This document shows, piece after piece, positions 5,507 through 43,237 of a DNA stretch of 64,000 bases. A program made the translations under genes and the position numbers. The notes beneath the pieces were generated by a model that was not told the origin of the DNA, made no database searches, and saw nothing but the letters and a program-made list of their open reading frames with translations. This DNA is from Rhodoglobus sp. (GTDB lineage Bacteria; Actinomycetota; Actinomycetes; Actinomycetales; Microbacteriaceae), in NCBI GenBank assembly GCA_025463515.1, contig JAODAQ010000053.1, positions 62,735 through 126,734 of the forward strand, read 5' to 3'. Each line of letters opens with the position of its first letter. Positions within the stretch are counted from its first letter, which is position 1.

Positions 5507-5530
5507 GGTTCCTTCCGGAGGTTGGGTGGA

Positions 5531-9871: not shown

Positions 9872-9924
9872 GGCACCAAGAACTTGCACCTGGGAACTGC
9901 AAAAACACCAACTAGGAGAAACTC

Positions 9925-10593: not shown

Positions 10594-10606
10594 CCACTCA
10601 CTGATA

Positions 10607-10637
10607 GCGGCGGGGGAGACACGCTCTTCCCCGCCGC
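10607..10637 (+). terminator. Intrinsic terminator candidate
   Basis: GCGGCGGGG / CCCCGCCGC 9-bp stem followed by TTCTGGTTT, 14 nt after the lipoprotein stop. Confidence 0.5.
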
Positions 10638-10659
10638 TTCTGGTTTAAGGAGCATCCCC

Positions 10660-11070: not shown

Positions 11071-11077
11071 GGCTGAC

Positions 11078-11677
11078 ATGCTGGAGACCGTGACTGCTGA
11101 CAACGACGTGACAGCCGAGGGCCAGGCCCCCGCCGCTCGCCTGCAGGACCTTCTGGAGCGAGTCGCCCAGGCCGATCAGCGCGCGTTCTCCGAGCTGTAC
11201 GACGCCCTGTCGCCCCGTGTGTTCGGCCTGATCAAGCGCCTGCTGCGCGACCACGCGCAGTCGGAGGAGGTCACGCAGGAGGTTTTCCTGGAGATCTGGC
11301 AAACTGCTACGCGCTTCGATCCGAATAAGGGTGGAGCAACGACGTGGATCCTCACGATGGCCCACCGTCGTGCGGTGGACCGGGTGCGGTCCTCGCAGTC
11401 GTCGCGCGACCGAGACACCCGCATCGGCATCCGCGACTACAAGGTCGACTACGACCATGTCTCTGAAACCATTGAAGTCCGTCTCGAGCACGAAAGGGTG
11501 GAGAAAGCCATGACACGTCTTACCGAACTGCAGCGCCAGGCCGTCTCCCTCGCGTACTACGGCGGCTACAGCCACAGCGAGGTGGCGCAGATGCTCTCGG
11601 TGCCGATCGGCACGGTCAAGACCCGACTGCGCGACGGCATGATCCGCCTGCGCGATGAACTGGGGGTGACCTCATGA
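11078..11677 (+). CDS. sigK: ECF sigma factor, SigK-like
   Basis: Sigma-70 region 2 (AFSELYDALSPRVFGLIKRLLRD...EVTQEVFLEIW) and region 4 (LTELQRQAVSLAYYGGYSHSEVAQMLSVPIGTVKTRL). ATGA-coupled to an RskA-type anti-sigma gene. Confidence 0.85.
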   Translation: MLETVTADNDVTAEGQAPAARLQDLLERVAQADQRAFSELYDALSPRVFGLIKRLLRDHAQSEEVTQEVFLEIWQTATRFDPNKGGATTWILTMAHRRAVDRVRSSQSSRDRDTRIGIRDYKVDYDHVSETIEVRLEHERVEKAMTRLTELQRQAVSLAYYGGYSHSEVAQMLSVPIGTVKTRLRDGMIRLRDELGVTS

Positions 11678-12435
11678 CCCGCAAGGATGACGCGAGCCTC
11701 TCCGGCGCCTACGCCCTGAACGCTCTCGACGCCGAGGAGGCCAAGGCCTTCGAGGCCCACCTCGCCGAGAACGAGGAGACCCGCAACGAGGTGACCGAGC
11801 TCGCCGATACCGCGGTGCTGCTCGGCCTCGCGGTCGCCCCCGAGACTCCGCCCGCGTCGCTCAAGGCCAGCATCATGGCCCAGCTCGCGACGACGCCCCA
11901 GCTCGACCGCGAGCCGGTGACATCTCCGGATGCCCGCTTCGCAGGCCGCGCGGAGACCGCAGCGCAGGCGCGCTGGTTCCAGCGACCGGTGAACGCCATC
12001 ATCGGGATCGCGGCTGCCGTCGCCCTCATCATCGGCGGCGGTGTGGCCGTGAACGCGATCAGCACGAACGTGACGCAGTCCGCCGAGGCGAACCAGCTCG
12101 CGGCGATCCAGGCTGCCTCCGACTCGCAGAGCCTCAAGGGCTCCGTCGCCGGTGGCGGCAAGGCGACCCTCGTGTACGCGCCGAGCCTCAAGGCCTCTGC
12201 GCTCATCGTCGAGGGAATGAACGCGCTGCCCGCCGACAAGGTCTACGAGCTCTGGTACATCAACGAGGCGGGCGCGCGCCCGGCCGGTACCTTCACCATC
12301 GGCCCCGACGGCAAGATGTGGCAGGTGCTCGAGGGCACGATGACCCCGGGCGATGCCGTCGGCGTGACCGTGGAGCCGCACGGCGGCTCGACTGCCCCGA
12401 CCACCGACCCGGTGCTGGTGATCGCTAGCGCCTGA
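11674..12435 (+). CDS. rskA: Anti-sigma-K factor RskA
   Basis: N-terminal anti-sigma helix (LSGAYALNALDAEEAKAFEAHL), one TM segment, and the RskA C-terminal domain (YELWYINEAGARPAGTF...GVTVEPHGGS). Confidence 0.8.
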   Translation: MTRKDDASLSGAYALNALDAEEAKAFEAHLAENEETRNEVTELADTAVLLGLAVAPETPPASLKASIMAQLATTPQLDREPVTSPDARFAGRAETAAQARWFQRPVNAIIGIAAAVALIIGGGVAVNAISTNVTQSAEANQLAAIQAASDSQSLKGSVAGGGKATLVYAPSLKASALIVEGMNALPADKVYELWYINEAGARPAGTFTIGPDGKMWQVLEGTMTPGDAVGVTVEPHGGSTAPTTDPVLVIASA

Positions 12436-12438
12436 TCT

Positions 12439-12511
12439 CTGCGCGATCTGCTCGACCTGCGCGACTGCGCGACTGCGCGACCTCTGCACGACCTGCGCGA
12501 CCTCTGCACGG
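12439..12511. repeat. Short tandem repeats (CTGCGCGA x3 and a ~20-mer x1.5)
   Basis: CTGCGCGA occurs in tandem at 12457-12480. CCTCTGCACGACCTGCGCGA is then partly repeated, immediately after the rskA stop. Confidence 0.7.
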
Positions 12512-12674
12512 CCGAGGGCCCCGGGAAGCATCCTGGGGCCTTCGTTGTGCGGTCGGGCGCCCTGCGCTGAGGGGCCACTTTCTGCGGCCGGCCCCGGTCT
12601 CGTCGCAACAACTGGCCCTCGGCCGGCTGCGATGAAGTAAGGCGAAATCGCCTAGCCGCCCTCGACCCTCGCCC

Positions 12675-12726
12675 AACTTCCCCATATGGCTGTTCCCGAG
12701 CCCCGGAACAGCCATATGGGGAAGTT
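12675..12726. repeat. Perfect 22-bp inverted repeat (hairpin)
   Basis: AACTTCCCCATATGGCTGTTCC / GGAACAGCCATATGGGGAAGTT with an 8-nt loop. Confidence 0.85.
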
Positions 12727-12727
12727 C

Positions 12728-12827
12728 GCGGCGGCGGCGGCGGCGGCGGGGGCGGGGGCGGTGCGGGACGGTGCGGCGCGGGACGGGACGGGACGGTGCG
12801 GCGCGGGACGGGACGGGGCGGGGCGGG
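12728..12827 (+). repeat. (GGC)n plus a G-run tandem tract (G-quadruplex-prone)
   Basis: (GGC)6-7, then GGGGGCGGGGG, then a repeated GGGACGG(TGCGGCGC)GGGACGGGAC unit. 12805-12827 reads GGGacGGGacGGGGcGGGGcGGG. Confidence 0.75.
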
Positions 12828-25413: not shown

Positions 25414-26186
25414 TCCCAGCTGAATCCCTGGGGGCTCACGGCGCCCCATGCCACTGTCAACTCGCCGAGACGCCACCTCGCTTTCGTCCCCAGGATCGGC
25501 CACGTCTCCTTCATCGACGAGGCCACCGCGACCCATCGCTGCGACGGGCCGTACACACCCAAGGGTGCGTGCACCGCCCACCAGCGATCGAGGTCGAGCA
25601 GATACCGGTGAATAGATTCGCCGGGGACGTTCCTGTGGATGAGAACCTTCGGCAGCCGCTCAGCGACGATGGACGGCTTGTCGAGGTCGGCCAGGCGGAG
25701 CGAAACGGTGAGGGTCTGTGGGCCATCGGCCGTGACATCCACCCAGCTGGCTACCCGGCCGACCTCGTTGCACGTCCCCTCCACAAGCACGCCGCCCGGC
25801 TGCAGTCTCCCCACCATGCCGCGCCACGCGTCGAGCACCTCCGACTCGTCGTACTGTCGCAGGACATTGAGCGCACGGATGACCGTGGGGCTGTCGCCCG
25901 GCACCTCGAACCCGCCGAGCCGGAAGCTCACGCCAGCCCGTGCACTCTTCGACGCCAGCGCGACCCGCGCGGGCTCGATCTCGATGCCGACGACCTTCAC
26001 GTCCGGCCGTCTGTGAGAGAGGCGGTGATACAGCTCGAGAGTGGTGGTGGCGGATGCCCCGTACCCGAGATCCACGACCAGCGGCGTCTCGGCGCGGCGC
26101 AGGGCGGGCAGTTGCGCGATCCACCTGTCGATGCGGCGGAGGCGGTTGGTGCCGGTGGTTCCGCGCGTGACCTGGCCGATGGGCAT
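25410..26186 (-). CDS. Class I SAM-dependent methyltransferase
   Basis: ATG 26186 forms an ATGA overlap with the hepT stop. Motif I is VVDLGYGAS. Confidence 0.7.
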   Translation of the reverse strand: MPIGQVTRGTTGTNRLRRIDRWIAQLPALRRAETPLVVDLGYGASATTTLELYHRLSHRRPDVKVVGIEIEPARVALASKSARAGVSFRLGGFEVPGDSPTVIRALNVLRQYDESEVLDAWRGMVGRLQPGGVLVEGTCNEVGRVASWVDVTADGPQTLTVSLRLADLDKPSIVAERLPKVLIHRNVPGESIHRYLLDLDRWWAVHAPLGVYGPSQRWVAVASSMKETWPILGTKARWRLGELTVAWGAVSPQGFSWD

Positions 26187-26524
26187 CAGAGCGCACGTTT
26201 CGTGCGGGCGAGCTCGCCTATCTGCGGGAAATCCGTGGCGACTGTCTCCCACAGCACATCCAGATCAATGATGTTGTAGTGGTGAACGATCTTGTCGCGA
26301 TTCTTGGCCGCGAATGACCAGACTGGTTCAGAGAATCGTTGAGAGTCGAGCTGGGTCAATTGCTTCGCCACTTCGCCGAGCCGATTGCTGAGCGCCTCGA
26401 ATGCGAGACGGATCGCAATGTCGTCGTCGAAGGCGATGCGCCCTCGCGCGACCAGTTCGGCTGCGGCTTGCAGGGTCTTCTCGAGATCTTCGAGCAAGCC
26501 CTCGGCTCGATCGTCCGCGTTCAT
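26186..26524 (-). CDS. hepT: HepT (DUF86/HEPN) toxin
   Basis: 112 aa with the R-x4-H motif (NRDKIVHHY). ATGA overlap with the upstream mntA. Confidence 0.8.
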   Translation of the reverse strand: MNADDRAEGLLEDLEKTLQAAAELVARGRIAFDDDIAIRLAFEALSNRLGEVAKQLTQLDSQRFSEPVWSFAAKNRDKIVHHYNIIDLDVLWETVATDFPQIGELARTKRAL

Positions 26525-26991
26525 AAGGGGATCGACTGGTCGAGCATCGCTTTGTCCCGGGGTCGAGTCAGATCGAGCGCTGAGCGAGTTATGACATCCA
26601 CGGGACGCCCGAGTACCTGTTCCAGGTCTGTCTCGAACCCCGCGATATCGAACAGCGAAGCACCTGGCTTTGCATCGACCAGGAAGTCGATGTCGCTGTC
26701 GAACCGTTGCTCGCCGCGCGCGACGGAACCGAACACGGCGACGTGATCGAAGCCCCATACGGTGCCGAGGCGTTTGATCAGGTCACGTCTGGACTGAATC
26801 TGCTCTAGGCCTACTGTTCCTGCCGCGCTGTTCTTCAGTTCCAAGTACACCGAGTAGGGGAGTATCGCGGCCTCTGGCTTGCGGTGCGAGCCGATGATTG
26901 CGACGTCGATCTGGTGAGCCGTCATCCCATCCACGAGCGCGGAAAGACTGCTGCGGGCCTCCGCCATTCCCATCACCCGATCGTCCATCAC
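26521..26991 (-). CDS. mntA: MntA-type nucleotidyltransferase antitoxin with an N-terminal Phd/YefM-like domain
   Basis: N-terminus AEARSSLSALVD...IGSHRKPEAAILPYSVYLEL is Phd/YefM-like. NTase motif GSVARGEQRFDSDIDFLV. The start could instead be an internal ATG. Confidence 0.8.
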   Translation of the reverse strand: MMDDRVMGMAEARSSLSALVDGMTAHQIDVAIIGSHRKPEAAILPYSVYLELKNSAAGTVGLEQIQSRRDLIKRLGTVWGFDHVAVFGSVARGEQRFDSDIDFLVDAKPGASLFDIAGFETDLEQVLGRPVDVITRSALDLTRPRDKAMLDQSIPL

Positions 26992-28152: not shown

Positions 28153-28821
28153 TTAGTCGTCGAGGTCCGACGTGCTGCCGCTGCACATGGCGAACGCGTA
28201 CGCGCCAGTCGCGGTGTTCTCGGAGATGACCTTGCCGTCGATGGTGATCTTGCAGCTGATCGTTCCGCCGTCAGCACCCGTGCTCGCCGACAGCGAGTAG
28301 ATGTTGAAGTCGAAGGCGCCGCCGCGCTCGACGTCGGAGGTGATCGACCATGGCAGTGGTGCGTCCGCGACCTGGGACGTTCCGCTGTTGTTGTCGTCGT
28401 AGGTCGAGTAGGTGATGTTCGACGCGGTGGCCGTGTCGCCGCTCACTTCGTAGACGAGCGGGACGAGCACGGAGGCGGCCTCTTCGGCCTGATCCATGTC
28501 GTCCTTGACGCTGCTGGCGACGGTCGCGATTCCGACGAGGCTCACGATGAGCCCGACGATGATTGCGAGGATGCCCAGCGCGAGGCCGATCGCGGGCGTG
28601 ACCTTCTTGCGGTTCTTGGCGACAAGCCCGGCGATGGCGAGGCCGATGGCGACGAGGGCCGGGACCCACGCGATGAAGCTCAGGAAGGGGATGATCGCGA
28701 AGAGGAAGGCGACGGCACCGACGATGAGGGAGCCGAGGCCGACGGGGTTGCCCTGCTTGGTCGCGGGCGGCGGGACCGGCACGGACGAATCGGGCGTGCT
28801 GGGGGGAGGGGTGATCGACAT
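28153..28821 (-). CDS. Membrane protein (DUF4190-like N-terminus, beta-rich extracytoplasmic C-terminus)
   Basis: 222 aa with a Pro-rich N-terminus, three TM helices, and a C-terminal domain containing two Cys. Confidence 0.65.
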   Translation of the reverse strand: MSITPPPSTPDSSVPVPPPATKQGNPVGLGSLIVGAVAFLFAIIPFLSFIAWVPALVAIGLAIAGLVAKNRKKVTPAIGLALGILAIIVGLIVSLVGIATVASSVKDDMDQAEEAASVLVPLVYEVSGDTATASNITYSTYDDNNSGTSQVADAPLPWSITSDVERGGAFDFNIYSLSASTGADGGTISCKITIDGKVISENTATGAYAFAMCSGSTSDLDD

Positions 28822-28954
28822 TGAGGACCTTTCGAGTCTGACTAGGGTCCTCAGAGATTATCGGATTCCTCAACTTCCGCTGCGCCACCGGGCCGCAGAG
28901 AGGCAACACGAACAGGGGCTAGGAGCAGAGCGCTCGCGACTACTCTCGAAAGGG

Positions 28955-29386
28955 ATGGAGTCATGGGCGAGCAGCCCAGCAGTCCGCAAGTCGATGCTGG
29001 GCAACAAGCGACGCGACACGCAGATCGAACTGCGCGTCCGCCGGCTGCTCCACGCCCGTGGCCTCCGCTACCGAGTCGACTACGCGCCCCTCGACAAGCG
29101 CCGCCGCGCAGACATCGTCTTCACCCGCCAGCGGGTCGCTATCTTCATCGACGGCTGCTTTTGGCACGGATGCCCCCTGCACTACATCCAGCCCAAGACG
29201 AACGCCCACTACTGGTGGCCGAAGATCGAGCGCAACATCGCCCGCGACCTCGAGAACACGCACAGACTCGGTGACGCAGGGTGGGCGGTCGTGCGGTTCT
29301 GGGAGCACGAGGACCCCGACGAGATCGCCGACTCGATAGCGGAACTGATCGCGAGCCTCCGCGCCCAGAGCAGCCTCGCGTCCTAG
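28955..29386 (+). CDS. vsr: Very-short-patch repair endonuclease Vsr
   Basis: [32 protein letters not shown]...ADIVF...[13 protein letters not shown]...W.KI..N..RD...L...GW.V.RFWEH. ATG 28955. Confidence 0.85.
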
Positions 29387-29409: not shown

Positions 29410-30156
29410 ATGACCCACACGCTCATCCTGCTCCGCCACGGCAACTCCGACTGGAACCAGAAGAACCTCTTCACCGGATGGGTCGACGTGCGCCTCAGCG
29501 ACCAGGGCGTCGCCGAGGCGAAGCGCGCGGGTGAGCTCATCGCCGAGTCGGGCCTCAAGCCCGACATCCTCTACACGAGCGTGCTGACCCGCGCGATCCA
29601 GACGGCAAACATCGCCCTGGATGTCGCGGACCGCGCCTGGCTTCCGGTCAAGCGGTCGTGGCGCCTCAACGAGCGTCACTACGGCTCGCTCCAGGGTCTG
29701 GATAAGGCCGAGACCCTCGAGAAGTACGGCCCCGAGAAGTTCATGGAGTGGCGCCGCAGCTTCGACGTCCCCCCGCCCCCTCTCGACGACGACGCCGAGT
29801 ACTCCCAGGTGCACGACGAGCGCTACATCGGAATCGACGGCGAGATCCCGCGCACCGAGTCCCTCAAGATCGTGATCGACCGGATGCTCCCCTACTGGGA
29901 GTCGGACATCATCCCGTCGCTCGCCTCAGGGCAGACGGTCCTGGTCACTGCGCATGGCAACTCGCTGCGCGCGCTGGTGAAGCACCTCGACGGCATCTCC
30001 GACGAGGAGATCGCCGAGTTGAACATCCCGACGGGGATTCCGTTGGTGTACGAACTCGACGACGGTTTCAAGCCGACCGGTCCAGCGAAATACCTCGATC
30101 CCGAAGCCGCAGCCGCGGGTGCTGCGGCCGTGGCGGCGCAGGGGGCCAAGAAGTAG
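29410..30156 (+). CDS. gpmA: 2,3-bisphosphoglycerate-dependent phosphoglycerate mutase
   Basis: [32 protein letters not shown] and AHGNSLRAL motifs. Confidence 0.95.
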
Positions 30157-33100
30157 TCTCGCAGTCAGGATTCCAACCCGAATCGAGTCCCACTTGTTCA
30201 GTCTTTGTTGCTTTTTCTGTCCCAACAACGAGTTCGAGGCGCGGACGCTAGACGACTCTTGTGCCAGTTGCGGGCGCCAGTACGACTATCCCCTTGCGCA
30301 TGCGCCGGAACGGATCGGGACCTACGAAATCGTCAAGCCGCTTTCTCGCGGCTTTTATGCGGCAACTTTCGTGGCAAAGTATGGACAGCTAGGCAACCTT
30401 GTCGTGCTCAAGGTAGCGCCAGTCGACCTCTATAGGTTCTTTGGGAAAGACTTTCCAGCAGAGTGCACACGCCACCAAGAAGTAGCTGATGGCAGTGAAC
30501 ACTTGGTTCAGATTCGGGACTATCTCGACGTGGACGTCGACTTTGGCGATGCGACCCTGCGTTGCCATGTCGCGGTCCTGGACTACGTCAAGGGAGACCC
30601 CTTCGATGAGTTCCTCGATTCAGCGCCGTCCTTGGAATCGCTCGGCCAAGTCGCCATCGACCTCCTGCAGCTTCTGCAGGAGCTGAAGGATGCGCGCTTC
30701 TATCACAACGACCTGCACGACCAGAACATCCTCGTCCAGTCCCTATCCGGAAGCGCTCGACGACACGGTGCTCTCGACCCGTCTATCCGCGCGATTGCGA
30801 TCGATCTTGGTTCGACCGCGTCTGTCGATCGACAGGACCAGCAACATCTCGGTGATCTCCAGGCAGTTGTTATGCATCTTTTCGGGATCGCCCAAACGGT
30901 CCTAGAGTCGGCCACCATCGACACCTCGGAATATCGGATCGCTTATGCGATCGACGAAGTAAGTCACATGTTGTCACCGGACCGTGCAAGTCAGCGAGAT
31001 CCAGATTTCGATGGGGCGATAAGAAGGATTCGAGCTGGCTTGGATCCTGCGCGAAGTGGATGGTCAACGCCGCAGGTTCTTCAGCGGTTTGACGATTCTT
31101 ACAACGCTCAAACACTTCACCCTTGGCTATTGCCGCGCCTGCTAGTCGACCCGGAGGGGGAGTGGCTCGCAAGCGTGAGTGTTCGGGGTCCTCAGCTGAT
31201 TACGGGCATGCGTGGTTGCGGAAAGACGATGCTTCTTCGCGCGATGGACATTCACGCGCGCATCATCCAGCACGAGATTGACAGCAAACCGTCCATCGCG
31301 GACGCGCTTCAACACGACGGCTACGTGGGGCTGTACGTCTCGTGTACGCGTCTTCTTGACCCCCTCGGACAGGTCGGAAGCGCTATGCATGAGCCGTACG
31401 CGCGACTCCTTGTCGCGTACGCCCGCGAGGCATGTGCAGGACTTCAACACATCGATGACCGTCAACCTGGCGCGATCCGGGACGACGCGGCATCGGAGAT
31501 TGGCGACGTTTGTGCGTCCGCCCTCAACGGGGCTGACCTGTTGCGTGGTGCGAGCAGTCTCACGGAACTCGAGCAGAGATTGCAGCGAGTTCTCAGCTCG
31601 TTGGATCGGGGCGAGTTGACCTTCAAGATGCTCAAGAATCCTGCGATCGCTTTTCCGCAGCTAGGCGAAGCTGTCATAGCTGCCGTCCCTGGTCTATATG
31701 GCAGCCAAGTCCTGTTCTTGCTCGACGACGTGTCTACGCGGCACGTCTCAAAGGAAGACGTCGATGAACTGATTTCGGCGCTTCTATTCAGCCATCCAGG
31801 ATCAGCCTTCAAGATGACGACGGAAGCACAGACATTTCTTCGTTCCCCCGGTCAAATCGAGATAGCTAGATCCGGTCGCGACTACCAAACGTTCGATCTC
31901 GGGGCCGAGGTGAACGCGAAGCTGAGAGACAAGAACTCGTCGGAAGGGCTCGCATTCGTGAGCCAGATCCTTGAGAATCGCGCGGAGCATTTTGGCTTGC
32001 ATCCGACCCATAAGCCCATGCAGCTGTTGGGTGACGCAACGCTCGAATCCATCGCCCAGAACATAGTTTCCACTTCCAAAACATCACGTGAAAAGAAGTC
32101 CATCTACCGGGGACTTTCGGCTCTTAGGGCTGTTTGCGTCGGCGACATCGGCGACGTCATTAGTATTTACGACCTGATGCTTTCGAAGGCTCGCGATCGC
32201 AGGGAGATGCCCATTGCCGCCGCTACCCAATCCGAGGCGCTCCAAGAGTTTTGCGCGCGCCGGTTGTATCAGGTGAACAGACGTGACGGTCGCTTGAAAG
32301 ACTTCGCCCTGTCCTTTGCTGGTGCTGCTCATGAACTGCTCGTTCGATCCTCGGCGAACGGTGGACGACTGCGGCAGTACAACTCGATCTACGTTCGGCT
32401 GTCCCCCGATGCAACCTCGACGCAATATGAGCAGATCCGCCAACTTGTGGACGCTGGAGTTTTTGTACTGCGCGGTGGCACAGAGACCCCGCGCACAAAG
32501 TCGCGGGATCGCGATCCGATGCAGCAGTTCGCATTGACCTTCCGTAAGCTATTCGGACTCTCAAGCTTCATCGGCCTGGCGGAGCGCGACCGCTTTGAGC
32601 TGTCGGGGCCTGAGTTGGCCGAGTGGCTAGACTCCCCGTCGCGGGGGAGGGAGATACTGTTGCGCAACCTGGGAGGAGATGTTGACTCCGTTGCGAACGA
32701 CGAGGAATCCGGAATCGAGGTGACCCTGAACTCGTCGCCACTTGCCCTTACTGATCGCCCATCAGAGTTGAGTTACCCCGCCGAATCGATACCTTCGCCA
32801 CCCCAGAATCCTCCGGCAGATCCCTTCCTGGACGGACACCGTCCGTCGGGATGGACTCTCTCCGATGCACAGCTGGAGGAGCAACCCATTGAACACGTCG
32901 TTTTGGGACTTGGATTTGAGGAGCGCGCACTCGACTCAGCCAAGGAGCTGCTGGAAAGGACCCGGCCCAGCAGCGCAACATTGGTTAGGTATGAGTTGCA
33001 GGGCTTGGGCGCTGAGATCGAGAAGTTGGTGCGATCAAAAGTTGGCCATGTCGAAGTCATTGACTACGCTGCTGCTTCTGGGAGGACGTGGACTCCGCGC

Positions 33101-33790
33101 TTCGACGGTCTGACCCTTGTCGATGCAAGCGGCCTCGCAAAAGGGGCTTTGTTCAGGGCTGTTTTGGAAGCACTCAAGACGGGATCAGTAGTTGTCTCTT
33201 CGACTAGCGCACAGCACTACTATCCTGCGGACAAAGAGATCGAGGAGGTGCTCTCCGCCAGCAACGATGACTCGTTCGAATTGGTCCAGCGCTTGAACGA
33301 CCTCTGGTCAGGAGAGCAAGGCCCCTACACCTCTACGGAGCTACTTGGGAGGCTTTCTGATGGTTCCAAGCCACGTGTACTAGTTGCGGCTTCTTCGGCA
33401 AAGCCCGAGCGCCTTCTTTCGCTGCTTGAGGCTCGCGAATCAGACCACGTTGCTCTATCAGTCACGACCGCCAACAGCTCTCGTGGGGATTTGGCGAGGC
33501 TGGCAGCGGCGGTTGCCGTTCCCGACAGTCAAGCGGAGACAATTGATGCCAATGACCCATTGCAAGAACTCGAGTTCATAGCCCGCCAGTTCGCCATATA
33601 TTCGCCGAAGAGCGGATTCGAACTTGAGGTTGGTCTCACCGGTTCGAAAATGCAAACGGTTGCTTGCGCCGTTGCTGCAGCATGCCTTCCCTTGACCAAG
33701 GCCTGGTATACATCGCCGGCAGTCTTCGATCCGATCCGATTTAGCTCCGGGGTTGGGTCACGTCGTACGTATTTGTTCCGGATTGGCTAA
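30119..33790 (+). CDS. Large multidomain protein: Zn-ribbon + protein-kinase-like + P-loop NTPase + tandem Rossmann-like C-terminus
   Basis: 1223-aa ORF. CxxC...CxxC at aa 31-51. Kinase-like [16 protein letters not shown] and IDLGS. Walker A GMRGCGKT (31205-31228) and Walker B VLFLLDD (31709-31729). Start uncertain: GTG 30119 overlaps gpmA by 38 nt; the alternative is TTG 30194. Confidence 0.8.
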
Positions 33791-33888
33791 AGGCGCAGCG
33801 CTTTTCTCGCCGTGCAAATGACCCTATTGGTTGAGACTTAGTCGCGGCAGGCGTCCAGTACTCTGGCTTGACTGATCCTGGGAGTGCA

Positions 33889-35523
33889 ATGTCTGAGTTG
33901 GAACCGCTCATTCTGACCTTCGACCCGCAGACCGTGGACCATCTGGGCGCGAAGATGTACTCACATCTACCGAATGCGCTCGCGGAACTTGTCGCAAACT
34001 CTTACGACGCGGATGCCAAACACGTTCGTGTCGTCGTCGAAGGCAATGGCTCCATCTCGATCACGGATGACGGGCATGGAATGTCCAGGGAGGACGTACG
34101 GGAGAAGTACTTGCACATCGGCAGGAATCGTCGCACTGATGAGAGTGGCCTAACGGAGAGCGGCCGTCGCCAAGTGTCCGGGAAAAAGGGTCTTGGCAAG
34201 TTGGCGCTTTTCGGAATCGGCAAACGAGTCGAGTTGAAGACGACTCGAGCTGGCTCTTCTGCCCGAACACAGATAGTTCTCGACTATGACGAGATGAAGC
34301 AATCCACTGGGCCGTACCGGCCAACAGAAACGCAAGCTTCGATCTTGGAAGGTAGGCATGGAACCGTCGTGCGACTGAGTCAGCTCAAGAGATCCAGTGC
34401 GGTTTCCGCGGCGAGCGTGGCCAGAAGCCTTGCGCGACTATTCAATTATGTTGACGAGGAATTCGAAGTAACGATCGTTGGTCCGGAAGGGACCGAGTAT
34501 CGAGTCACGCCCGAGTCACGACTTGATGCAATCGAAGTGGAGTTCAGCTGGACCTTTCCAGACGACGGCGGCGTCGACAATCCTGACTTGAGGGATCTTG
34601 GTGTGGGTGGTCGTGTCGTATCAACGCCCAAACCAGTTCCACAGTCAATTCGCGGCATAGCACTTTATGTGAACGGACGTCTGGCGAATGAAGCTGACTA
34701 CTTCGACTCCTCGGCGTCTAGCTATGCGTACTCGTACTTGTCTGGATATCTGAACGTCGATTATCTAGACCGTCTCGAGCCTGATGTGATCGCGACGGAC
34801 CGAAGAGCCCTTGACTGGGGGCGCGACGAGACCATTGACCTTCGTGTGAAGCTGACCGACTTTGTTACCTGGATAGCGGGTGACTGGCGCCGCCGGCGCC
34901 GCGAAGCTAGCGCTGTGCGAGCCACGGAGGTATTGGGTGGCTCGACGGAAGAGTGGGTTTCCTCCATCAAGACTGAGGAAGGTGCTGTCGTCCGCGAACT
35001 TGTGGAGGCAATCGCGTCAGAAGAAGTCGAGATATCCGCCGAGCAACAGGGCGCGCTACTTTCCCTCATGAAACGCGCGGTGCCACCGCACGCCGAGTAC
35101 ACCTGGCGCCACCTACACCCTTCGATCCAGGACGCTACGCGTGACCGCTACCTAATAGACGATTTTTACGGTGCCGTCCAGGAAGGCATTAAGCGATACG
35201 TGAACGCCGCGCGCGATAAGTCGGGTGTTCCTCACGATGAAGCCACCAAGATCGTGGTGAACGCATTTGGCGAGAGTGGACGACTCCACGTTTTCCAACG
35301 CTTCACGGAGAGTTTCTCTGAGGCGACAGCAAAGAATGTCGAGGAAGGGCAGAAGCACGTTTCCATGGGAATCGTGGCTGGCTTCAGAAATCCGATGGCA
35401 CACGAAGAAGTGCTTCGATTGCATGAGAGCGGCGCATTCACGTTCGACGACTGCTTAGATGCGCTCAGCATTGTTTCGCACCTCATGCGGCGACTCGACG
35501 AGGCCGAACTGATTGTCGAGTAA
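33889..35523 (+). CDS. GHKL (MORC/MutL-like, HATPase_c_3-type) ATPase fused to a TIGR02391/Hypoth_Ymh-like C-terminal domain
   Basis: Bergerat motifs: N box ELVANSYDA, G1 DDGHGM, G2 GKKGLGKLALFG. C-terminus has HPSI...FYGAVQEGIKRY...GFRNPMAHE (R-x4-H). ATG 33889 is preceded by GGGAG; the track ORF starts at TTG 33868. Confidence 0.8.
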   Translation: MSELEPLILTFDPQTVDHLGAKMYSHLPNALAELVANSYDADAKHVRVVVEGNGSISITDDGHGMSREDVREKYLHIGRNRRTDESGLTESGRRQVSGKKGLGKLALFGIGKRVELKTTRAGSSARTQIVLDYDEMKQSTGPYRPTETQASILEGRHGTVVRLSQLKRSSAVSAASVARSLARLFNYVDEEFEVTIVGPEGTEYRVTPESRLDAIEVEFSWTFPDDGGVDNPDLRDLGVGGRVVSTPKPVPQSIRGIALYVNGRLANEADYFDSSASSYAYSYLSGYLNVDYLDRLEPDVIATDRRALDWGRDETIDLRVKLTDFVTWIAGDWRRRRREASAVRATEVLGGSTEEWVSSIKTEEGAVVRELVEAIASEEVEISAEQQGALLSLMKRAVPPHAEYTWRHLHPSIQDATRDRYLIDDFYGAVQEGIKRYVNAARDKSGVPHDEATKIVVNAFGESGRLHVFQRFTESFSEATAKNVEEGQKHVSMGIVAGFRNPMAHEEVLRLHESGAFTFDDCLDALSIVSHLMRRLDEAELIVE

Positions 35524-35533
35524 TCCCACGTAG

Positions 35534-36607
35534 TTACAGCGCCTTAGCAAGAGAGCGACCGATCGCGGCACCAAGAGGGATTGGAACCGCATTGCCAATT
35601 TGGCGGGCTATTGCTGTTTTGGACCCCACAAAGCGATGAGATGGCGGAAAGCCCTGAAGAGTCGCGGCTTCATAATGTGTGATCGCCCGGTTGGCCGTGG
35701 GGTGCAAATAGCGGCCCTTTTCTGGTTTGAAGAACTCGGTCCTGATGGTGACCGAAGGCTTGTCTAGACGAAGCCTCCCCATGACGTCTCCCGAACCAGA
35801 ATTGTGATTAACCCAACAAGGTGCAAGAAGGTGCGGTGGGAGATTCTTCCGATTCCCTCCCGGAGGTATCTCTTTGAACCTAGCGCGCGAAAGTGATGAA
35901 TAGTTGCGCCCAAGATGGAGCTCATCTGCGGTGAACGAGCCTTCGAACGTGTGCCCGTCGAACTCATACTTTCGCCCCTGCGGGAGTTCCACACCATTCA
36001 CTTCGTGAGGAATCCCTGCGAAAGCTTCGGCAACATTGATGTGATTGCCAAAATGTGTCAATTCAGGGAATCCAGGAAACTCAAGGTCACGGTGGTGACC
36101 GATCAAGACGGCGCGTTTTCGGGCTTGGGGAGCACCGAAATCCGCGGCATTGAAAATTCTGTGCTGGAAGTCGTAGTCCTTCAGGAACCCATTCGTGACC
36201 GCTGCTTGAAACTGCTCAAATTGCGGCGACTTCGCGAATGCGGCCACGTTCTCGACGACGAAATACTTCGGCTTGGTTGCGAGGATGGCGTGCCCGTATT
36301 GCTCCCAAAGGGAGTTTCGCTCGTCTTCTACTTCTCGCTTGCCAAGAGTCGAGAAGCCTTGACATGGCGGCCCTCCGACTATGACATCCACGTGGGTTGG
36401 GACATCCCCTGATCTGAGCCAGTCTTGGATCGGAAGCGCTTGTACGATCCCTTGTCCGAATGTCGCCTCATAGCTGGCCGCGGCCGAGCGGTCCCATTCA
36501 ACTGCGGCAATGGACTTGAATCTGGAGGAGGCGGCATGCAGGCCAGCGGTCATGCCGCCTGCTCCAGCGAAGAGATCGAGCACTCGAATAGCGGAATGAG
36601 AGCCCAT
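35534..36607 (-). CDS. dcm: DNA (cytosine-5)-methyltransferase
   Basis: Motif I DLFAGAGG, motif IV GGPPCQGFS, motif VI VVENV, motif X RQIGNAVP. Convergent with the GHKL gene across a 10-nt gap. Confidence 0.9.
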   Translation of the reverse strand: MGSHSAIRVLDLFAGAGGMTAGLHAASSRFKSIAAVEWDRSAAASYEATFGQGIVQALPIQDWLRSGDVPTHVDVIVGGPPCQGFSTLGKREVEDERNSLWEQYGHAILATKPKYFVVENVAAFAKSPQFEQFQAAVTNGFLKDYDFQHRIFNAADFGAPQARKRAVLIGHHRDLEFPGFPELTHFGNHINVAEAFAGIPHEVNGVELPQGRKYEFDGHTFEGSFTADELHLGRNYSSLSRARFKEIPPGGNRKNLPPHLLAPCWVNHNSGSGDVMGRLRLDKPSVTIRTEFFKPEKGRYLHPTANRAITHYEAATLQGFPPSHRFVGSKTAIARQIGNAVPIPLGAAIGRSLAKAL

Positions 36608-37028
36608 GTATTAGGAGTGTAGCCGGCATGAGAGGTCCCTGGGGACATAATGCGAATCGCGTCTACAAACAGTGACTAGCCCAAAGCGTAGGGCAGCGCG
36701 TCATGCGCGTCGAGAGCCCATTTTCCTGCTTCGTGACAAAACTACGGAGGTCGTTGAACCTACCGGAAGGTGCGAGCTGGCCTGGGATAGTCGCCAGCTG
36801 TGCGCCCCGACCTGGGTGTAAAGGTGTGGACGCGCAGGAGCTACGGTCGTCCGTCGGCACGCCGCAAGCATGGTGCGCGGCCGCCCGCCGTCGGCGAACC
36901 GCGCCGCCGCCCCGATGATGCGGTCCGGGGTGGGGAAGCGTTGGGCGCCCATGTCCTGATCCTCCTGATCGATGAGGGCGACTGCGGTCTGTCCGAACGA
37001 TGACGCCGGCTGCCGATACCCTGACCCC

Positions 37029-40000
37029 ATGTTCCTGCTCGATGGCACGGTCGTCACGAGCCCGAGCGACCTCACCACCGCCGCGCACTGCGAGTTCGCG
37101 TTCGCCCGGCAGCTCGACGCGAAGCTCGGGCTCATCGAGATCGAGCGGGTGCCGCGCGATCCGCTCGAGGCCAGGGCCGCAGAGCTCGGGGACGAGCACG
37201 AGAACCGGTGGCTCGAGTACTACCGGGCGAACAAGAGTGTTGTCGAGATCGAGCGGCCGAGCATCCGGCGCGATGCACTGAGAGAAGCCGCCAAAAAGAC
37301 GGAAGAAGCGTTCCGCAACCAAGCAGAGGTCGTATTTCAGGCCACATTCTTCGACGAGTCAGACCCCACCGCACCGATGATCGGGTTCGCCGACTTCATC
37401 GTGCGGCAGCCCGACGGGCGGTATCGGGTACAGGATACGAAGCTGGCGCGGTCCGTGAAGGTGACGGCGCTGCTGCAGCTCGCGGCGTACTACGACCAGC
37501 TCGTGCGGCTGAACGTGCCGGCGGATGAGACCGTCGAGCTGATCCTCGGGACCGATGAGGTGGTGCCGCAGGACGTGAACGACATCCTCCCGGTGTACCG
37601 GAAGCGCAAAGCGCGGCTACACCAGATCGTGGCCGAGCGAGCGGCGGCGACGCAGGCAGCGCAGTGGGGCGACCGCCGGTACTCCGTCGACGGGCGGTGT
37701 GAGTTCTGTGAGCCGGAGGTGGAGGCATCCCGAGACCTGTTGCTTGTCGCCGGGATGCGGCTGGCTCAGCGGGCGAAGTTGATTGAGGCGGGCATCGTCA
37801 CCATCGACGACCTCGCAGTCTCAGAGGATGCGCCGGCCGGTCCCAGGCAGCAGGCCGCGCTGCAGCTGCAGGCGACAGGGCCGATCCCGCCGTTCGTCAT
37901 GTTCGCGCCCGAGCTCATCGGGCACCTGCCCGAGCCCGACCCGGGCGACATCTTCTTCGACTTCGAGGGCGACCCGCTCTACCGCGAGGAGCACACCTGG
38001 GGCCTCGACTACCTGTGGGGGCTCGTCGATCGCGATGAGACGTTCACCGCGTTCTGGGCACACGACTTCGAGGCCGAGCGAAAAGCACTGGAGCAGTTCC
38101 TGGCGTGGGTGACGGAGCGGCGCAAGCAGTACCCGAACATGCACATCTACCACTACGCCTCCTACGAGCGCACCCACCTGCTCACCATCTCCGCGCGGCA
38201 CGGCGTCGGCGAGCACATCGTCGACGGCCTGCTGCGGGATAACGTGCTCGTCGACCTGTATCCGCTGGTGAAGAAGACCGTGCGGGTGGGCGGCCGCTCG
38301 TACTCGATCAAGAAACTCGAGCCGCTGTACATGGGGGAGGAGCTGCGGGAGAGCGAGGTCGCGAACGCCGCGGCATCCATCGAGCAGTACGACCTCGCGA
38401 TGCGGTCGGAGCCCGCCGAACAAACCAGGCTGCTCGAGACGATCGCCGACTACAACCGGTACGACTGCGTCTCCACGCTGCGGTTGCACGAGTGGCTGCT
38501 GGCCCGGGCGAGCGAGTTGGGCGTGCAGCCCGGCATGTACGCCGAGCCTGTGGAGGAGCGGCTGCCGTTCGAGCCGAGCATCCTGGCCGGGCAGCTGCTG
38601 GCGCTGGAGGACGGGTCCGGCGCCTTCGCGCTCGCCTCCGCCGCCGTCGACTACCACCGCCGCGAGAACAAGAGCTTCTGGTGGGAGCACTTCGCCCGCC
38701 TCGAATACCCGGTCGAAGAATGGCAGGATGCCCGGGGCGTATTCCTCGTCACGAGCGGCGAGGTCGTGTCCGAGTGGTTCACCAAGACCTCGGCGAGCTA
38801 CCGGACGGTAAAGCTCCGCGGCGAGTGGGCCCCCGGCAGCGCCACCTCCACCGGCGAGGCGTTCACGCTCTACGACCCGCCCGGCCCCTACCGCGACCCC
38901 CGCATCGGCGGCGGGCTGCGCCTGCCCGTCAACGCCTCCAGCGTGTTCCCCGACGAGGACGACCCCGACGTCGTCTACGTCACCGAGCGCTGCCCCGGCG
39001 GCCAAGAGCCATGGGCCCGGATGCCGCTGGCCATAGCCCCCGGACCGCCTCCCCGCGCCGCCTCCCTCGACCAGGCCATCGAGACCGTGGGCGCGCGGCT
39101 GTGCGAGGATCCGTGGCCGAAGTCCTCGATCGGCGACATCCTGCGGCGCACCCCGTCGCGCACGAAGTCGGGCGTGCTGAGCCCGGCCAACGGCGACGTG
39201 CGAGCGGCCGTTGTCACGAGCATCCTCGATCTCGATGATTCGTACCTCGCCGTGCAGGGCCCGCCCGGTACCGGCAAGACCACCCTCGCCGCCACCGTGA
39301 TCACGACGCTCGTGCGCGACCACGGCTGGCGCGTCGGCGTCGTCGCGCAGTCGCACAAGGTGGTCGAGAACGTGCTGCGCGCGGTGGTGAAGGCCGGGCT
39401 CGACCCCGACCGGGTCGCGAAGGCCCCGCCGACCGGCGGCAGCTACTCCGACGAGCCCTTCTTCGAGCTGCAGAAAGACACGCACCAGCTGTTCGCGCAG
39501 CGCAAGCACACCGGCTATGTCATGGGCGGCACCGCCTGGGACATGACCAACACCAAGCGCGTCGGCCGCCTCCAGTTCGACCTGCTCGTGATCGACGAGG
39601 CCGGCCAGTTCTCGCTCGCCGCGACCGCCGCCGTGAGCGTGAGTGCGCGCAATCTGCTCCTGCTCGGCGACCCGCAGCAGCTGCCGCAGGTGAGCCAGGG
39701 CACCCACCCGGCGCCGGTCGACCAGTCCGCGCTCGGGTTCATTGCCGACGGCCACGCGGTGCTGCCGCGCGAGTACGGCTACTTCCTCGCCAAGAGCTGG
39801 CGCATGCACTCCGCGATCACGGCGCCCGTCTCCGCCCTGGCCTACGACGGCGCCCTCCGTTCAGCCCCCAGCGCAGACGCCCGGATGCTCGTAGGCGTCG
39901 CTCCCGGACTCCATCCCCTCCCCGTGGCGCACCACGGCAACGCCACCCACTCCGTCGAAGAGGCGGCTCATGTCGTCGCCCTCGTGGAAGCGCACCTCGG

Positions 40001-40358
40001 CCGCGACTGGAACGGCACGCCCCTCACGCAAGACGACATCATCGTGGTCACGCCCTACAACGCGCAGGTCGAGTGCATCCGACTCGCGCTCGCCGACTAC
40101 CCCGGCGTGCGGGTGGGCACGGTCGACAAGTTCCAGGGGCAGGAGGCCGTGATCTCCATCGTGTCGCTCGCGGCGTCGAGCCCGGTCGACGTTCCGCGCG
40201 GGCTCGACTTCCTGCTGTCGCGCAACCGCCTCAACGTGGCCATCAGCCGGGCTCAGTGGGCGGCGTACCTGCTGTACTCACCCGAGCTGACCGACTTCCT
40301 GCCGTACACGGCGGAGGGCGTGGCCGACCTGAGCCGCTTCATCCGGCTGGTGTCTTAG
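37029..40358 (+). CDS. RecB-like PD-(D/E)xK nuclease + RNase-H-like exonuclease + SF1 (Dna2/Upf1-like) helicase fusion (TM0106-family-like)
   Basis: GFADFIV...QDTKLA...QLAAYY (37392-37490), FFDFEGDP (37944-37976), Walker A GPPGTGKT (39258-39281), LLVIDEAGQ (39582-39608), VDKFQGQE. ATG 37029 (MFLLDG...) is preferred over ATG 36972. Confidence 0.85.
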   Translation: MFLLDGTVVTSPSDLTTAAHCEFAFARQLDAKLGLIEIERVPRDPLEARAAELGDEHENRWLEYYRANKSVVEIERPSIRRDALREAAKKTEEAFRNQAEVVFQATFFDESDPTAPMIGFADFIVRQPDGRYRVQDTKLARSVKVTALLQLAAYYDQLVRLNVPADETVELILGTDEVVPQDVNDILPVYRKRKARLHQIVAERAAATQAAQWGDRRYSVDGRCEFCEPEVEASRDLLLVAGMRLAQRAKLIEAGIVTIDDLAVSEDAPAGPRQQAALQLQATGPIPPFVMFAPELIGHLPEPDPGDIFFDFEGDPLYREEHTWGLDYLWGLVDRDETFTAFWAHDFEAERKALEQFLAWVTERRKQYPNMHIYHYASYERTHLLTISARHGVGEHIVDGLLRDNVLVDLYPLVKKTVRVGGRSYSIKKLEPLYMGEELRESEVANAAASIEQYDLAMRSEPAEQTRLLETIADYNRYDCVSTLRLHEWLLARASELGVQPGMYAEPVEERLPFEPSILAGQLLALEDGSGAFALASAAVDYHRRENKSFWWEHFARLEYPVEEWQDARGVFLVTSGEVVSEWFTKTSASYRTVKLRGEWAPGSATSTGEAFTLYDPPGPYRDPRIGGGLRLPVNASSVFPDEDDPDVVYVTERCPGGQEPWARMPLAIAPGPPPRAASLDQAIETVGARLCEDPWPKSSIGDILRRTPSRTKSGVLSPANGDVRAAVVTSILDLDDSYLAVQGPPGTGKTTLAATVITTLVRDHGWRVGVVAQSHKVVENVLRAVVKAGLDPDRVAKAPPTGGSYSDEPFFELQKDTHQLFAQRKHTGYVMGGTAWDMTNTKRVGRLQFDLLVIDEAGQFSLAATAAVSVSARNLLLLGDPQQLPQVSQGTHPAPVDQSALGFIADGHAVLPREYGYFLAKSWRMHSAITAPVSALAYDGALRSAPSADARMLVGVAPGLHPLPVAHHGNATHSVEEAAHVVALVEAHLGRDWNGTPLTQDDIIVVTPYNAQVECIRLALADYPGVRVGTVDKFQGQEAVISIVSLAASSPVDVPRGLDFLLSRNRLNVAISRAQWAAYLLYSPELTDFLPYTAEGVADLSRFIRLVS

Positions 40359-42009: not shown

Positions 42010-42082
42010 ATCGCCTGAAGTGCAGCGGCGGCGGAGCAACGCCGACCGGTCCACGCGGCAGATTGAAACTAATCTAGTCCCC

Positions 42083-43237
42083 ATGGACTCCGCGTGGCTG
42101 GTACCGGCCGCCCTTGCCTTCGGCGTCATCGTCGGGGCGGGCGTTTTCGCCATCGTCCTGATAGCTGCGCGGCGAGGGCAGAGGGCTGTGGATGTCACGT
42201 CCACGGCGGTCCCGGACGGGGTCGACCAGGTACTCGACGCCCTCGAGTCCGCGGGGGTGGTGATCGACCCGTCGAACAACGTCGTCAAAGCCTCGCCCGG
42301 CGCCCTGAGCCTCGGCCTCGTGTGGAACAGCGCGCTCGTGCATCCGGAGCTCACCAAGCTCGTCGACCAGGTCCGTCGCAACGGCGACCCGGTCAGCGAG
42401 GAGCTGCACCTCTCGCGAGGGCCATTCGGCGACGCGACGATCTACCTGGGTGTGCGCATCGCGCGGCTGGGGGCGCGGTACATCCTGCTGCTCGCCGAGG
42501 ACCGCACCGAGTCGTTCCGCCTCGACGAGGTGCGCCGCGACTTCGTGGCCAACATCAGCCACGAGCTCAAGACCCCGATCGGCGCGGTCGGCCTGCTCGC
42601 CGAGGCACTGGTCAGCGCGAGCGACGAGCCCGAGCAGGTCAAGCGCTTCGCGAAGCGCCTGACGAAAGAGTCCGAGCGGCTGGCGCGCATCACGCAGGAG
42701 ATCATCGAGCTCTCCCGCTTGCAGGCGACGGATGCCCTCGCCAAAGCCGAGCTCGTCGACATCGACCAGGTGGTCGCCGTCGCGATCGACCAGAACCGCG
42801 TGCTCGCCGAGGCGCACAAGGTGCAGCTCGTGAGCGGAGGGGATGCCGGCGCCGAGGTCTACGGCGACGAGACCCTGCTCGCGGTCGCGCTCCACAACCT
42901 CGTCTCCAACGCCATCCAGTACTCGCCGAAGAGCACGCGCGTCGGGATCGGCGTCAGCAACCGGGAGGGCGTCGTCGAGATCGCCGTGACCGACCAGGGC
43001 GTCGGCATCCCAGATGAAGACCAGGACCGGGTGTTCGAGCGGTTCTTCCGCACGGATCCGGCCCGCAGCAGGAACACCGGGGGCTCCGGTCTGGGGCTCA
43101 GCATCGTCAAGCACGCGATCCAGAACCACGGCGGCGACGTCCGGGTCTGGTCGCAGCCGGGGCACGGATCAACCTTCACCATCAGGCTGCCAGAGGCATC
43201 GCACGCGGCAGCCGCATCCTTGGGAGCACAGCAATGA
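42083..43237 (+). CDS. senX3: Sensor histidine kinase SenX3-like
   Basis: One TM segment; H box ISHELKTPIG; N and G boxes (NAIQYS, DQGVGIP, GGSGLGLSIV). ATG 42083. Confidence 0.85.
   Translation: MDSAWLVPAALAFGVIVGAGVFAIVLIAARRGQRAVDVTSTAVPDGVDQVLDALESAGVVIDPSNNVVKASPGALSLGLVWNSALVHPELTKLVDQVRRNGDPVSEELHLSRGPFGDATIYLGVRIARLGARYILLLAEDRTESFRLDEVRRDFVANISHELKTPIGAVGLLAEALVSASDEPEQVKRFAKRLTKESERLARITQEIIELSRLQATDALAKAELVDIDQVVAVAIDQNRVLAEAHKVQLVSGGDAGAEVYGDETLLAVALHNLVSNAIQYSPKSTRVGIGVSNREGVVEIAVTDQGVGIPDEDQDRVFERFFRTDPARSRNTGGSGLGLSIVKHAIQNHGGDVRVWSQPGHGSTFTIRLPEASHAAAASLGAQQ

Follow-up and report, generated by a model that had tools for sequence, protein, structure and literature searches.

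A Dcm-linked GHKL ATPase with a C-terminal Ymh/HEPN domain in Rhodoglobus sp.: a candidate R-position component of an NmeAI-type module

Proteins that combine an N-terminal GHKL ATPase with a C-terminal Ymh domain have been described in connection with restriction-modification (R-M) systems. The putative R.NmeAIP of Neisseria meningitidis was described by Orlowski and Bujnicki in 2008 as a fusion of an N-terminal GHKL and a C-terminal Hypoth_Ymh domain (PMC2441816), and in the same year the paraMORCs were defined by Iyer et al., who placed them in R-M operons with Dcm and Vsr (PMC2292703). In 2013, Anantharaman et al. assigned Ymh to HEPN, described paraMORC-Ymh fusions in R-M neighbourhoods and proposed for these a role like that of PrrC and RloC (PMC3710099). 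NmeAI is a three-gene system consisting of a 5-methylcytosine (m5C) methylase (M), an R gene (R) and a Vsr/patch-repair gene (V) (PMC3787668). The target of M.NmeAI has been reported as CCGG. Here, a gene of this kind is described in a 64,000-nucleotide (nt) stretch of Rhodoglobus sp. DNA (contig JAODAQ010000053.1, positions 62,735 to 126,734 of the forward strand), which as a whole is called the window. The gene, GHKL-Ymh, lies at 33889..35523 on the + strand of the window, and encodes a paraMORC-type GHKL ATPase fused to a Ymh/TIGR02391 HEPN domain, as indicated by its open reading frame (ORF), by Pfam, NCBIfam and PADLOC matches, by its homologues and by an AlphaFold2 (AF2) model. As the architecture was already described in 2008 and 2013, the gene is one more member of a known family. 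What is added here is the C5 methylase as conserved partner, the co-diversification of M and R, counts for Vsr, the lack of a conserved DNase and a chassis that is common with BbrUII/HgiDII.

The reading favoured here, with a probability of about 45%, is that GHKL-Ymh is the "R-position" component of an NmeAI-type, Dcm-linked, R-M-like module, in which an ATP-dependent DNA clamp would license an RNase on unmethylated DNA. In the window, a C5 cytosine DNA methyltransferase (Dcm) is encoded at 35534..36607 on the - strand (PF00145, E 2.4e-57; TIGR00675, 163 bits), convergent with GHKL-Ymh and 10 nt from its stop codon. An earlier reading of the window from its letters only, here called the sequence-only reading, was right at the domain level and overlooked both this adjacent partner and the published architecture.

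The family is widespread. A homologue search yielded 887 proteins, and the best 120 of these have 43-82% identity at 84-100% query coverage (at least 95% in 116), contain both domains in all but one case and are almost always named "TIGR02391 family protein" in their source. In a scan of ~185,000 species genomes, relatives were found in 222, including Actinobacteria, Bacteroidota, Proteobacteria, Firmicutes, Spirochaetes, Patescibacteria and one archaeon. The Ymh domain profile on its own retrieved 2014 clusters at 50% identity, and about one third of the top-ranked clusters carry the GHKL-Ymh fusion. From the genome scan, 80 loci with 36-59% identity to the window protein were kept and analysed by tblastn and ORF clustering, and all counts for GHKL-Ymh loci below refer to these. 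Dcm is found within 300 bp of GHKL-Ymh in 58 loci and within 7 kb in five more. Of the Dcm genes in these 58 loci, 48 are upstream of GHKL-Ymh in the same orientation, 7 are downstream and convergent, as in the window, and 3 are downstream in the same orientation. A Vsr gene is found at a distance of up to 1.5 kb in 30 loci and of up to 7 kb in 39, and in the relatives it usually abuts the M-R pair. No other gene cluster in the ORF clustering is shared by more than 13 of the 80 loci, and no DNA nuclease gene is conserved beside GHKL-Ymh among them. Several loci that seemed to be without an adjacent Dcm do carry a C5 methylase, which is divergent and full-length in L019 (Kribbella-type) and short in L042.

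The methylase and GHKL-Ymh have also diversified together. The primary methylases fall into four lineages, and in 55 of 55 testable loci the nearest GHKL-Ymh relative is accompanied by a methylase of the same lineage, compared with a mean of 19.7 and a maximum of 32 by permutation. The mobile, co-evolving unit is Dcm plus GHKL-Ymh, often with Vsr. The linkage of GHKL-Ymh to its cognate methyltransferase is tight and conserved, as it is for a Type II R component, and the partnership looks obligate. In seven loci (L028, L041, L045, L050, L053, L066 and L069, ~8900-12800 in each), GHKL-Ymh is flanked by two different C5 methylases in an M1-R-M2 order. Two flanking methylases are a layout typical of asymmetric recognition sites, in which both strands need protection, and the seven loci are what would be expected if this applied here. 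In three Clostridia loci (L048, L077 and L078), GHKL-Ymh stands in the R slot of the final pair of tandem M-R arrays. HpaII-family (CCGG) restriction genes are also present in two of these arrays (L048, 6277-7428; L077, 5870-7036) and in L035, and together with the target reported for M.NmeAI they hint that the context of some family members is related to CCGG. Two close relatives (L081 and L083, 62-64% identity to the window protein) have the same convergent Dcm pair in otherwise unrelated defence islands near other R-M systems.

A full-length Neisseria homologue in an M-R-V layout was found by tblastn. The Neisseria gonorrhoeae copy (L084; NZ_CP119142.1, 3100-6100) has 31% identity to the window protein and is broken into two ORFs (3965-4858 and 5048-5644). 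A fragmented methylase gene lies upstream of it and an intact Vsr gene (5650-6072) downstream. The M-R pair appears to be decaying together. The record NZ_CP119142.1 is listed in PLSDB as a 2.17-Mb "plasmid" and is evidently a mislabelled chromosome.

The GHKL-Ymh ORF starts with the ATG at 33889, ends with the stop at 35523 and encodes 544 amino acids (aa). This ATG is preferred over an in-frame TTG at 33868 because a Shine-Dalgarno-like GGGAG is located 4 nt upstream of it. The GHKL (Bergerat-fold) ATPase domain covers aa 1-190 (33889..34458, +) and is indicated by HATPase_c_3 (Pfam; aa 28-159, E 4.4e-22), by NF050001 and by invariant motif residues. Motif I is E33-LVA-N37-SY-D40 (33985-34008, +), motif II is D60-DGHGM (34066-34083, +), motif III is G98-KKGLGKLALFG (34180-34215, +) and motif IV is G158-T159 (34360-34365, +). 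The residues E33/N37/D40, D60/G62/G64 and G98/G101/G103 are unchanged in 81 of 81 sequences, and G158 is invariant in both alignments of 41 and 114 sequences. By these motifs, the protein is a GHKL ATPase with all four ATP-binding motifs in place. The sequence-only reading had already called the Bergerat motifs complete, and this holds; the end that it gave for GKKGLGKLALFG, 34206, is to be replaced by 34215. Its residue numbers (R507, H512, N44, D67 and aa 410-551) fit a 551-aa ORF from the TTG at 33868 and become R500, H505, N37, D60 and aa 403-544 when counted from 33889.

The ATPase domain is followed by a predicted S5-like transducer or middle domain at aa 191-312 (34459..34824, +), which is indicated by invariance and by Foldseek alignments of ~390-440 columns to the N-terminal plus middle modules of MORC2, SMCHD1 and Hsp90. 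Next is a helical linker at aa 313-400 (34825..35088, +), defined by AF2 secondary structure and conservation, with a long helix of 37 residues at 313-349 and the invariant residues R337 and W356. Related GHKL proteins can be aligned only up to ~aa 310-370, and their C-termini diverge beyond this point. The AF2 model of the whole protein (predicted local distance difference test score, pLDDT, 88.2; predicted template modelling score, pTM, 0.72) contains the GHKL domain, a mixed alpha/beta middle part (~191-312), the 37-residue helix with further helices and a C-terminal helical bundle. When this model was compared with the PDB using Foldseek, Hsp90/TRAP1, MORC2 with DNA and SMCHD1 were matched, all at E ~1e-11, and the MORC2 alignment extends over ~410 columns with a target-based template modelling (TM) score, TMt, of 0.47-0.50 (0.50 for 9cdh_A). 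As judged from the model, the GHKL and S5 parts are a MORC/MutL/Hsp90-type ATPase module. A PDB sequence search with the whole protein gave only weak N-terminal matches to MutL, PMS2 and MORC2, with MutL as the best. The description "GHKL/MORC-like" in the sequence-only reading stands for GHKL and for a MORC/Hsp90-like fold, and "MORC-like" is best read as paraMORC, since the literature places Ymh fusions among the paraMORCs (PMC3710099). MORCs proper are set apart from paraMORC1-5 by a MORC-specific sequence motif (Iyer et al., 2008). In the middle domain, D299-x3-T303-x-R305 is invariant within the segment DVIATDRR (34783-34806), which seems to resemble the gamma-phosphate sensor loop "DVNVHPAK" of MutL. 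The conserved cluster D294/D299/T303/R305 had been considered as a cryptic DNase site, and this was rejected because it aligns by eye with the same ATP-sensor loop.

The C-terminal domain, aa 401-540 (35089..35508, +), is assigned to Ymh/TIGR02391 HEPN by PF09509, TIGR02391, PADLOC, an AF2 domain model and invariant R, H and E residues. Hypoth_Ymh (PF09509) matches aa 407-536 (E 2e-18; 66.8 bits against a cut-off of 25) and TIGR02391 scores 51.8 bits against a cut-off of 39.45, so that both exceed their curated cut-offs, as the sequence-only reading had expected. PF09509 is also matched by 31 of 31 homologous C-terminal domains. The same domains match the PADLOC models PD-Lambda-3_B (31 of 31, best 2.5e-13) and Aga_HEPN (29 of 31), with E values ranging from 1e-7 to 2.5e-13. 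The motif FRNPMAH is encoded at 35383-35403, with R500-N-P-M-A-H505 at 35386-35403 (+) and the codon of E432 at 35182-35184 (+). R500 and H505 are present in 80 of 80 full-length homologues and N501 in 75, while E432, R407, D521, C522 and L523 are found in all 80 and H410 in 78. As the R500/H505 set includes Actinobacteria, Bacteroidota, Proteobacteria, Firmicutes and others at 36-59% identity, this conservation is far beyond what a chance R-x4-H would give.

It has been described that HEPN domains share an Rx4-6H motif with a polar residue after the R at the end of helix 3, a conserved acidic residue in helix 2, typically within Ex3[KR], and an insert between helices 2 and 3, and Ymh (PF09509) is listed there as a HEPN family (PMC3710099), a grouping that the sequence-only reading had given correctly. 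In the AF2 model of the C-terminal domain alone (aa 396-544; pLDDT 92.2, pTM 0.88), which is a helical bundle, R500 (domain R105) is located at the end of core helix 3 (domain residues 83-104) and H505 (H110) opens the next helix. E432-G-I-K-R436 (Ex3R) is part of helix 426-445 of the whole-protein model, which is core helix 2, and in the domain model this helix is separated from core helix 3 by an insert made up of two short helices and one strand. By sequence and model, all the HEPN hallmarks of sequence and topology are found in this domain, with Asn as the residue after R, and the earlier suggestion that R-x4-H is arranged as in HEPN RNases is borne out by this position and by the full conservation of R and H. 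The HEPN assignment is well supported by motif, topology and literature; structure comparison is no proof of it. The Ymh domain is probably an RNA-cutting HEPN domain, as its RNase-type catalytic residues (E432/R500/N501/H505) are all intact. Among 31 C-terminal domains searched against Pfam at E values up to 10, the only cross-matches to other HEPN families are marginal single ones (HEPN_Swt1 at 0.15 and HEPN_MAE_28990 at 0.22), and Foldseek of the C-terminal model against BFVD returned nothing. Pfam, NCBIfam, PADLOC and Foldseek detected no DNase-type domain (PD-(D/E)XK, HNH, GIY-YIG, PLD or MutL-type) in the protein.

In the favoured reading, the protein would be a dimer that is held together constitutively by its C-terminal HEPN domains. 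HEPN active sites are composite and need a dimer, and MutL and Hsp90 dimerise via their C-termini, which is the reason for placing the HEPN domains in this position. ATP binding would close the N-terminal GHKL gate around DNA. The partner C5 methyltransferase would mark host DNA as self, and methylation would block productive engagement. Unmethylated target DNA of a phage or plasmid would instead drive the ATPase cycle and thereby license the HEPN site, which would cut RNA in a metal-independent manner, either globally, leading to growth arrest and abortive infection, or locally on the transcripts of the invader. Dimer geometry, DNA clamping, methylation gating and the RNA substrate are all inferred here. 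The suggestion of the sequence-only reading that the protein is an ATP-gated RNase or abortive-infection arm rather than an agent of DNA restriction agrees with this scheme and is plausible at the same conditional level. A bolder form of it, to which we give distinctly less than an even chance, is that the module is an R-M look-alike that never cuts DNA: the methylase would be the self-mark, the GHKL clamp would read unmethylated DNA and the HEPN dimer would cut RNA, so that a widespread, methylation-gated form of abortive infection or transcript silencing would have been mis-filed among Type II restriction enzymes.

Several points weigh against the favoured reading. No experimental study of any GHKL-Ymh family member was found in the searchable literature, and the prototype R.NmeAIP carries a REBASE-style annotation as a putative DNA restriction enzyme (PMC2441816). 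Foldseek of the isolated C-terminal model against the PDB does rank HEPN proteins first, with 2hsb as the best match at a non-significant E value of 0.49 and TM scores of 0.32-0.36; HEPN-MNT toxins, Csx1 and AbiV are in the same list, in which TM scores are 0.3-0.45 and no match is significant. A PDB sequence-profile search with the Ymh domain gave nothing meaningful. No part of GHKL-Ymh could be assigned a role in sequence-specific DNA reading, and the sole attempt at covariation was confounded. In that attempt, GHKL-Ymh was compared region by region with the target-recognition domain of the methylase, and cases in which R seemed nearly identical and M unrelated turned out to be an artefact of mixing upstream and downstream methylases in the two-methylase loci. 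A few loci do carry a true DNase gene, namely an RE_HpaII gene (L035, 35-652) that overlaps the start of GHKL-Ymh and an HNH_2 gene (L080, 8770-9987) directly upstream of it, and in these a helper or second-line role fits better. Finally, a kinase-AAA gene shares the genomic island with the pair in the window, and the GHKL-Ymh module may be wired differently there.

This island is marked by a low guanine-plus-cytosine (GC) content of 0.53-0.62 over ~30,150-36,900, compared with 0.65-0.72 in the flanks. It consists of exactly three genes, kinase-AAA, GHKL-Ymh and Dcm, and is located between gpm and the stretch leading to a senX3-like histidine kinase (42020-43237). The kinase-AAA gene (30119..33790, +) encodes a Ser/Thr-kinase-like and ORC/CDC6-like AAA protein of 1223 aa, which matches PADLOC PDLC01925 "CARF6--CARF_STK_AAA" over its full length with 1312 bits. 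The database gene call for it is shorter, at 972 aa, which makes the start of the gene uncertain. An ORF for a Vsr very-short-patch repair endonuclease (28496..29386, +; TIGR00632, 121.8 bits) lies outside the island, upstream of gpm and 4.5 kb from GHKL-Ymh, with gpm and kinase-AAA separating it from Dcm. As the Vsr domain is confined to aa 160-272 of the ORF, its real start is probably at ~28.95 kb. On the other side, an 1128-aa protein (36972-40358, +) combines a PD-(D/E)XK domain (TIGR03491, TM0106-type, RecB-like) with RNase_H_2 and a superfamily 1 (SF1) helicase (AAA_11/AAA_12, MkoA-like). It was considered as part of the module and rejected, being absent from all 160 related loci and of native GC content, and it is probably an independent gene. 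The window also contains an ORF for a HepT-like (PF01934) HEPN ribonuclease toxin (26186-26758, -), a second and unrelated HEPN-type gene. With Vsr, the helicase-nuclease and this toxin present, the view of the sequence-only reading that GHKL-Ymh would be the sole nuclease-type effector of the cassette is wrong for the window. The tRNA scan of the window found only tRNA-Lys (8480-8553).

The kinase-AAA family was found at 123 genome loci by an alignment-based search, and 80 of these loci were used for its counts. Its partners are Dcm in 66-69 and Vsr in 41 of these 80 loci, and in 60 a Glycos_transf_3-like protein of ~403 aa is encoded directly upstream. This partner is absent from the window, so the kinase-AAA module may be incomplete there. 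The kinase-AAA gene is present in only 1 of the 80 GHKL-Ymh loci (L007, Cellulomonas), and a full GHKL-Ymh in only 2 of the 80 kinase-AAA loci. A GHKL gene of another kind is found directly 3' of kinase-AAA in ~10 of its loci and somewhere in the locus in ~21. These GHKL proteins are MzaB-like (NF041932, 457 bits) or BbrUII/HgiDII-like, and the latter match the restriction-enzyme model end to end with 300-320 bits and have a sub-threshold HSDR_N_2 (PD-(D/E)XK-type) match at their C-terminus. The GHKL-S5 chassis is common to the latter and the window protein (31-35% by tblastn over aa 7-364). On NF050001, the window protein reaches 215.3 bits, against an equivalog cut-off of 550 bits, and its best stretch pairs aa 9-224 with positions 3-221 of the 659 in the model. 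The picture suggested by these alignments is that of one GHKL-S5 chassis with exchangeable C-terminal effectors, HEPN among them.

A genuine ATP-dependent Type II-like restriction enzyme, cutting unmethylated DNA through Ymh or an unrecognised site, would also account for much of the partnership evidence, including the R position beside Dcm, the M-R(-V) order, the co-diversification and the R slot in the tandem arrays, and it would agree with the three-gene description of NmeAI, with M, R and patch repair (PMC3787668). Homology to BbrUII/HgiDII, at 215 bits, moreover extends over the N-terminal 220 aa, and HgiDII is a Type II enzyme in REBASE. Against this, the NF050001 score is far under the cut-off, with nothing matching the C-terminal half of the model, searches with Pfam, NCBIfam, PADLOC and Foldseek revealed no nuclease signature besides HEPN, and the conserved acidic residues of the middle domain belong to the GHKL transducer motif. 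Characterised HEPN enzymes leave 2',3'-cyclic phosphate ends (PMC3710099), which implies the use of the 2'-OH of RNA, a group lacking in DNA. DNA cutting by HEPN is thus chemically unlikely, and the RNase reading is for this reason ranked above the classical restriction-enzyme reading, which we regard as unlikely. To much the same degree it is doubtful that GHKL-Ymh is a latent second-line RNase like PrrC or RloC, restrained by R-M or methylase proteins and freed when a phage neutralises these or DNA is damaged, instead of by unmethylated DNA. Such a role was explicitly proposed for paraMORC-Ymh fusions (PMC3710099); the arrangement of an N-terminal NTPase and a C-terminal HEPN parallels PrrC and RloC, the defence islands lie beside other R-M systems and the HpaII-family and HNH_2 genes of L035 and L080 would suit it. 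Most loci conserve only Dcm with or without Vsr, however, and hence hold no restriction enzyme to guard, while two methylases in seven loci point to the methylation state of DNA and not to a methylase protein as the thing sensed, and both the ABC ATPase of PrrC and the Type I complex are absent.

Two further explanations are less probable. In a larger system that is specific to the window, kinase-AAA would sense infection and GHKL-HEPN would execute the response. Both genes form one low-GC island with Dcm, the same combination occurs in the Cellulomonas locus, and the kinase-AAA family is linked to Dcm and Vsr and, in part of its loci, to a GHKL gene. Yet joint occurrence of the two genes is rare, the kinase-AAA gene is absent from the close relatives at 62-64% identity, and the window lacks the ~403-aa partner. 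This explanation is quite improbable. Least probable is that GHKL-Ymh is a MutL-like accessory for very-short-patch repair by Dcm and Vsr, with Ymh serving for dimerisation or nucleic-acid binding only. MutL is the best PDB sequence match, Vsr is near the gene in 39 loci and a functional interaction of MutL and Vsr in Escherichia coli is cited in PMC2292703, but Vsr is missing from the surroundings of the gene in half of the loci, the catalytic residues of HEPN do not vary across phyla although a non-catalytic role would not need them, the gene is horizontally mobile and located in defence islands, and it decays with the methylase in N. gonorrhoeae.

As one more member of a predicted family, the gene is only moderately surprising. 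If HEPN is the working effector, the family would be an exception to the rule by which the "R" in an R-M pair cuts DNA, and DNA methylation would be used as a self-mark for an RNA-targeting response. It would also show a MORC/MutL-type clamp gating a nuclease. The minimal two-gene unit of Dcm and GHKL-Ymh is small and has clear mutable sites, which are N37/D60 for ATP, R500/H505 for HEPN and the catalytic Cys of the methylase. The question is thereby sharpened to the long-term pairing of a methylase with an ATPase-RNase and no DNase.

Multiple known systems share parts of this architecture. MORC2, SMCHD1, Hsp90 and MutL have the GHKL and transducer fold in common with the window protein, whereas MORC2, Hsp90 and SMCHD1 have no nuclease and MutL has an unrelated nuclease domain. 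VcSduA (paraMORC3/Shedu type I-D) also has this fold in a single-protein defence, which has been validated and requires both the GHKL ATPase and the C-terminal nuclease (bioRxiv 10.1101/2024.11.23.624991), but its nuclease is a DUF4263 PD-(D/E)xK DNase and it has no methylase. BbrUII/HgiDII (NF050001) have a homologous GHKL N-terminal module and an m5C methylase partner; the window protein, with its score below the cut-off and HEPN in place of the C-terminal half of the model, is not a member. In PD-lambda-3 of E. coli, an abortive-infection phenotype has been observed (PMC13190303), and the PADLOC model of subunit B matches the Ymh-type domain over the C-terminal ~130 aa, whereas the system consists of two genes, is small (270-position model) and is without a GHKL ATPase or a methylase partner.

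PrrC and RloC are suicidal second-line defences in which an N-terminal NTPase controls a C-terminal HEPN RNase, and PrrC is R-M-linked (PMC3710099). In contrast to GHKL-Ymh, their ATPase is ABC/Rad50-like, and PrrC is part of a full Type I hsdMSR locus. Among the 80 loci, GHKL-Ymh is accompanied by no conserved restriction or hsd gene, and the likeness is an analogy of logic only. In the NmeAI system, R.NmeAIP has the same pair of domains in the same order (PMC2441816). The two loci differ in that the window methylase is convergent instead of upstream and the window Vsr lies 4.5 kb off and outside the island, the identity to the gonococcal copy is 31%, and the activity of R.NmeAIP itself is putative. 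The paraMORCs of Iyer et al. and the paraMORC-Ymh(HEPN) fusions of Anantharaman et al. have exactly the same architecture and R-M neighbourhood. In those papers the partners were not quantified and a PrrC-like guard was proposed, whereas here a methylase, with or without Vsr, is the only conserved partner, and for this reason an R-M-like sensor-effector fits better than a PrrC-like guard.

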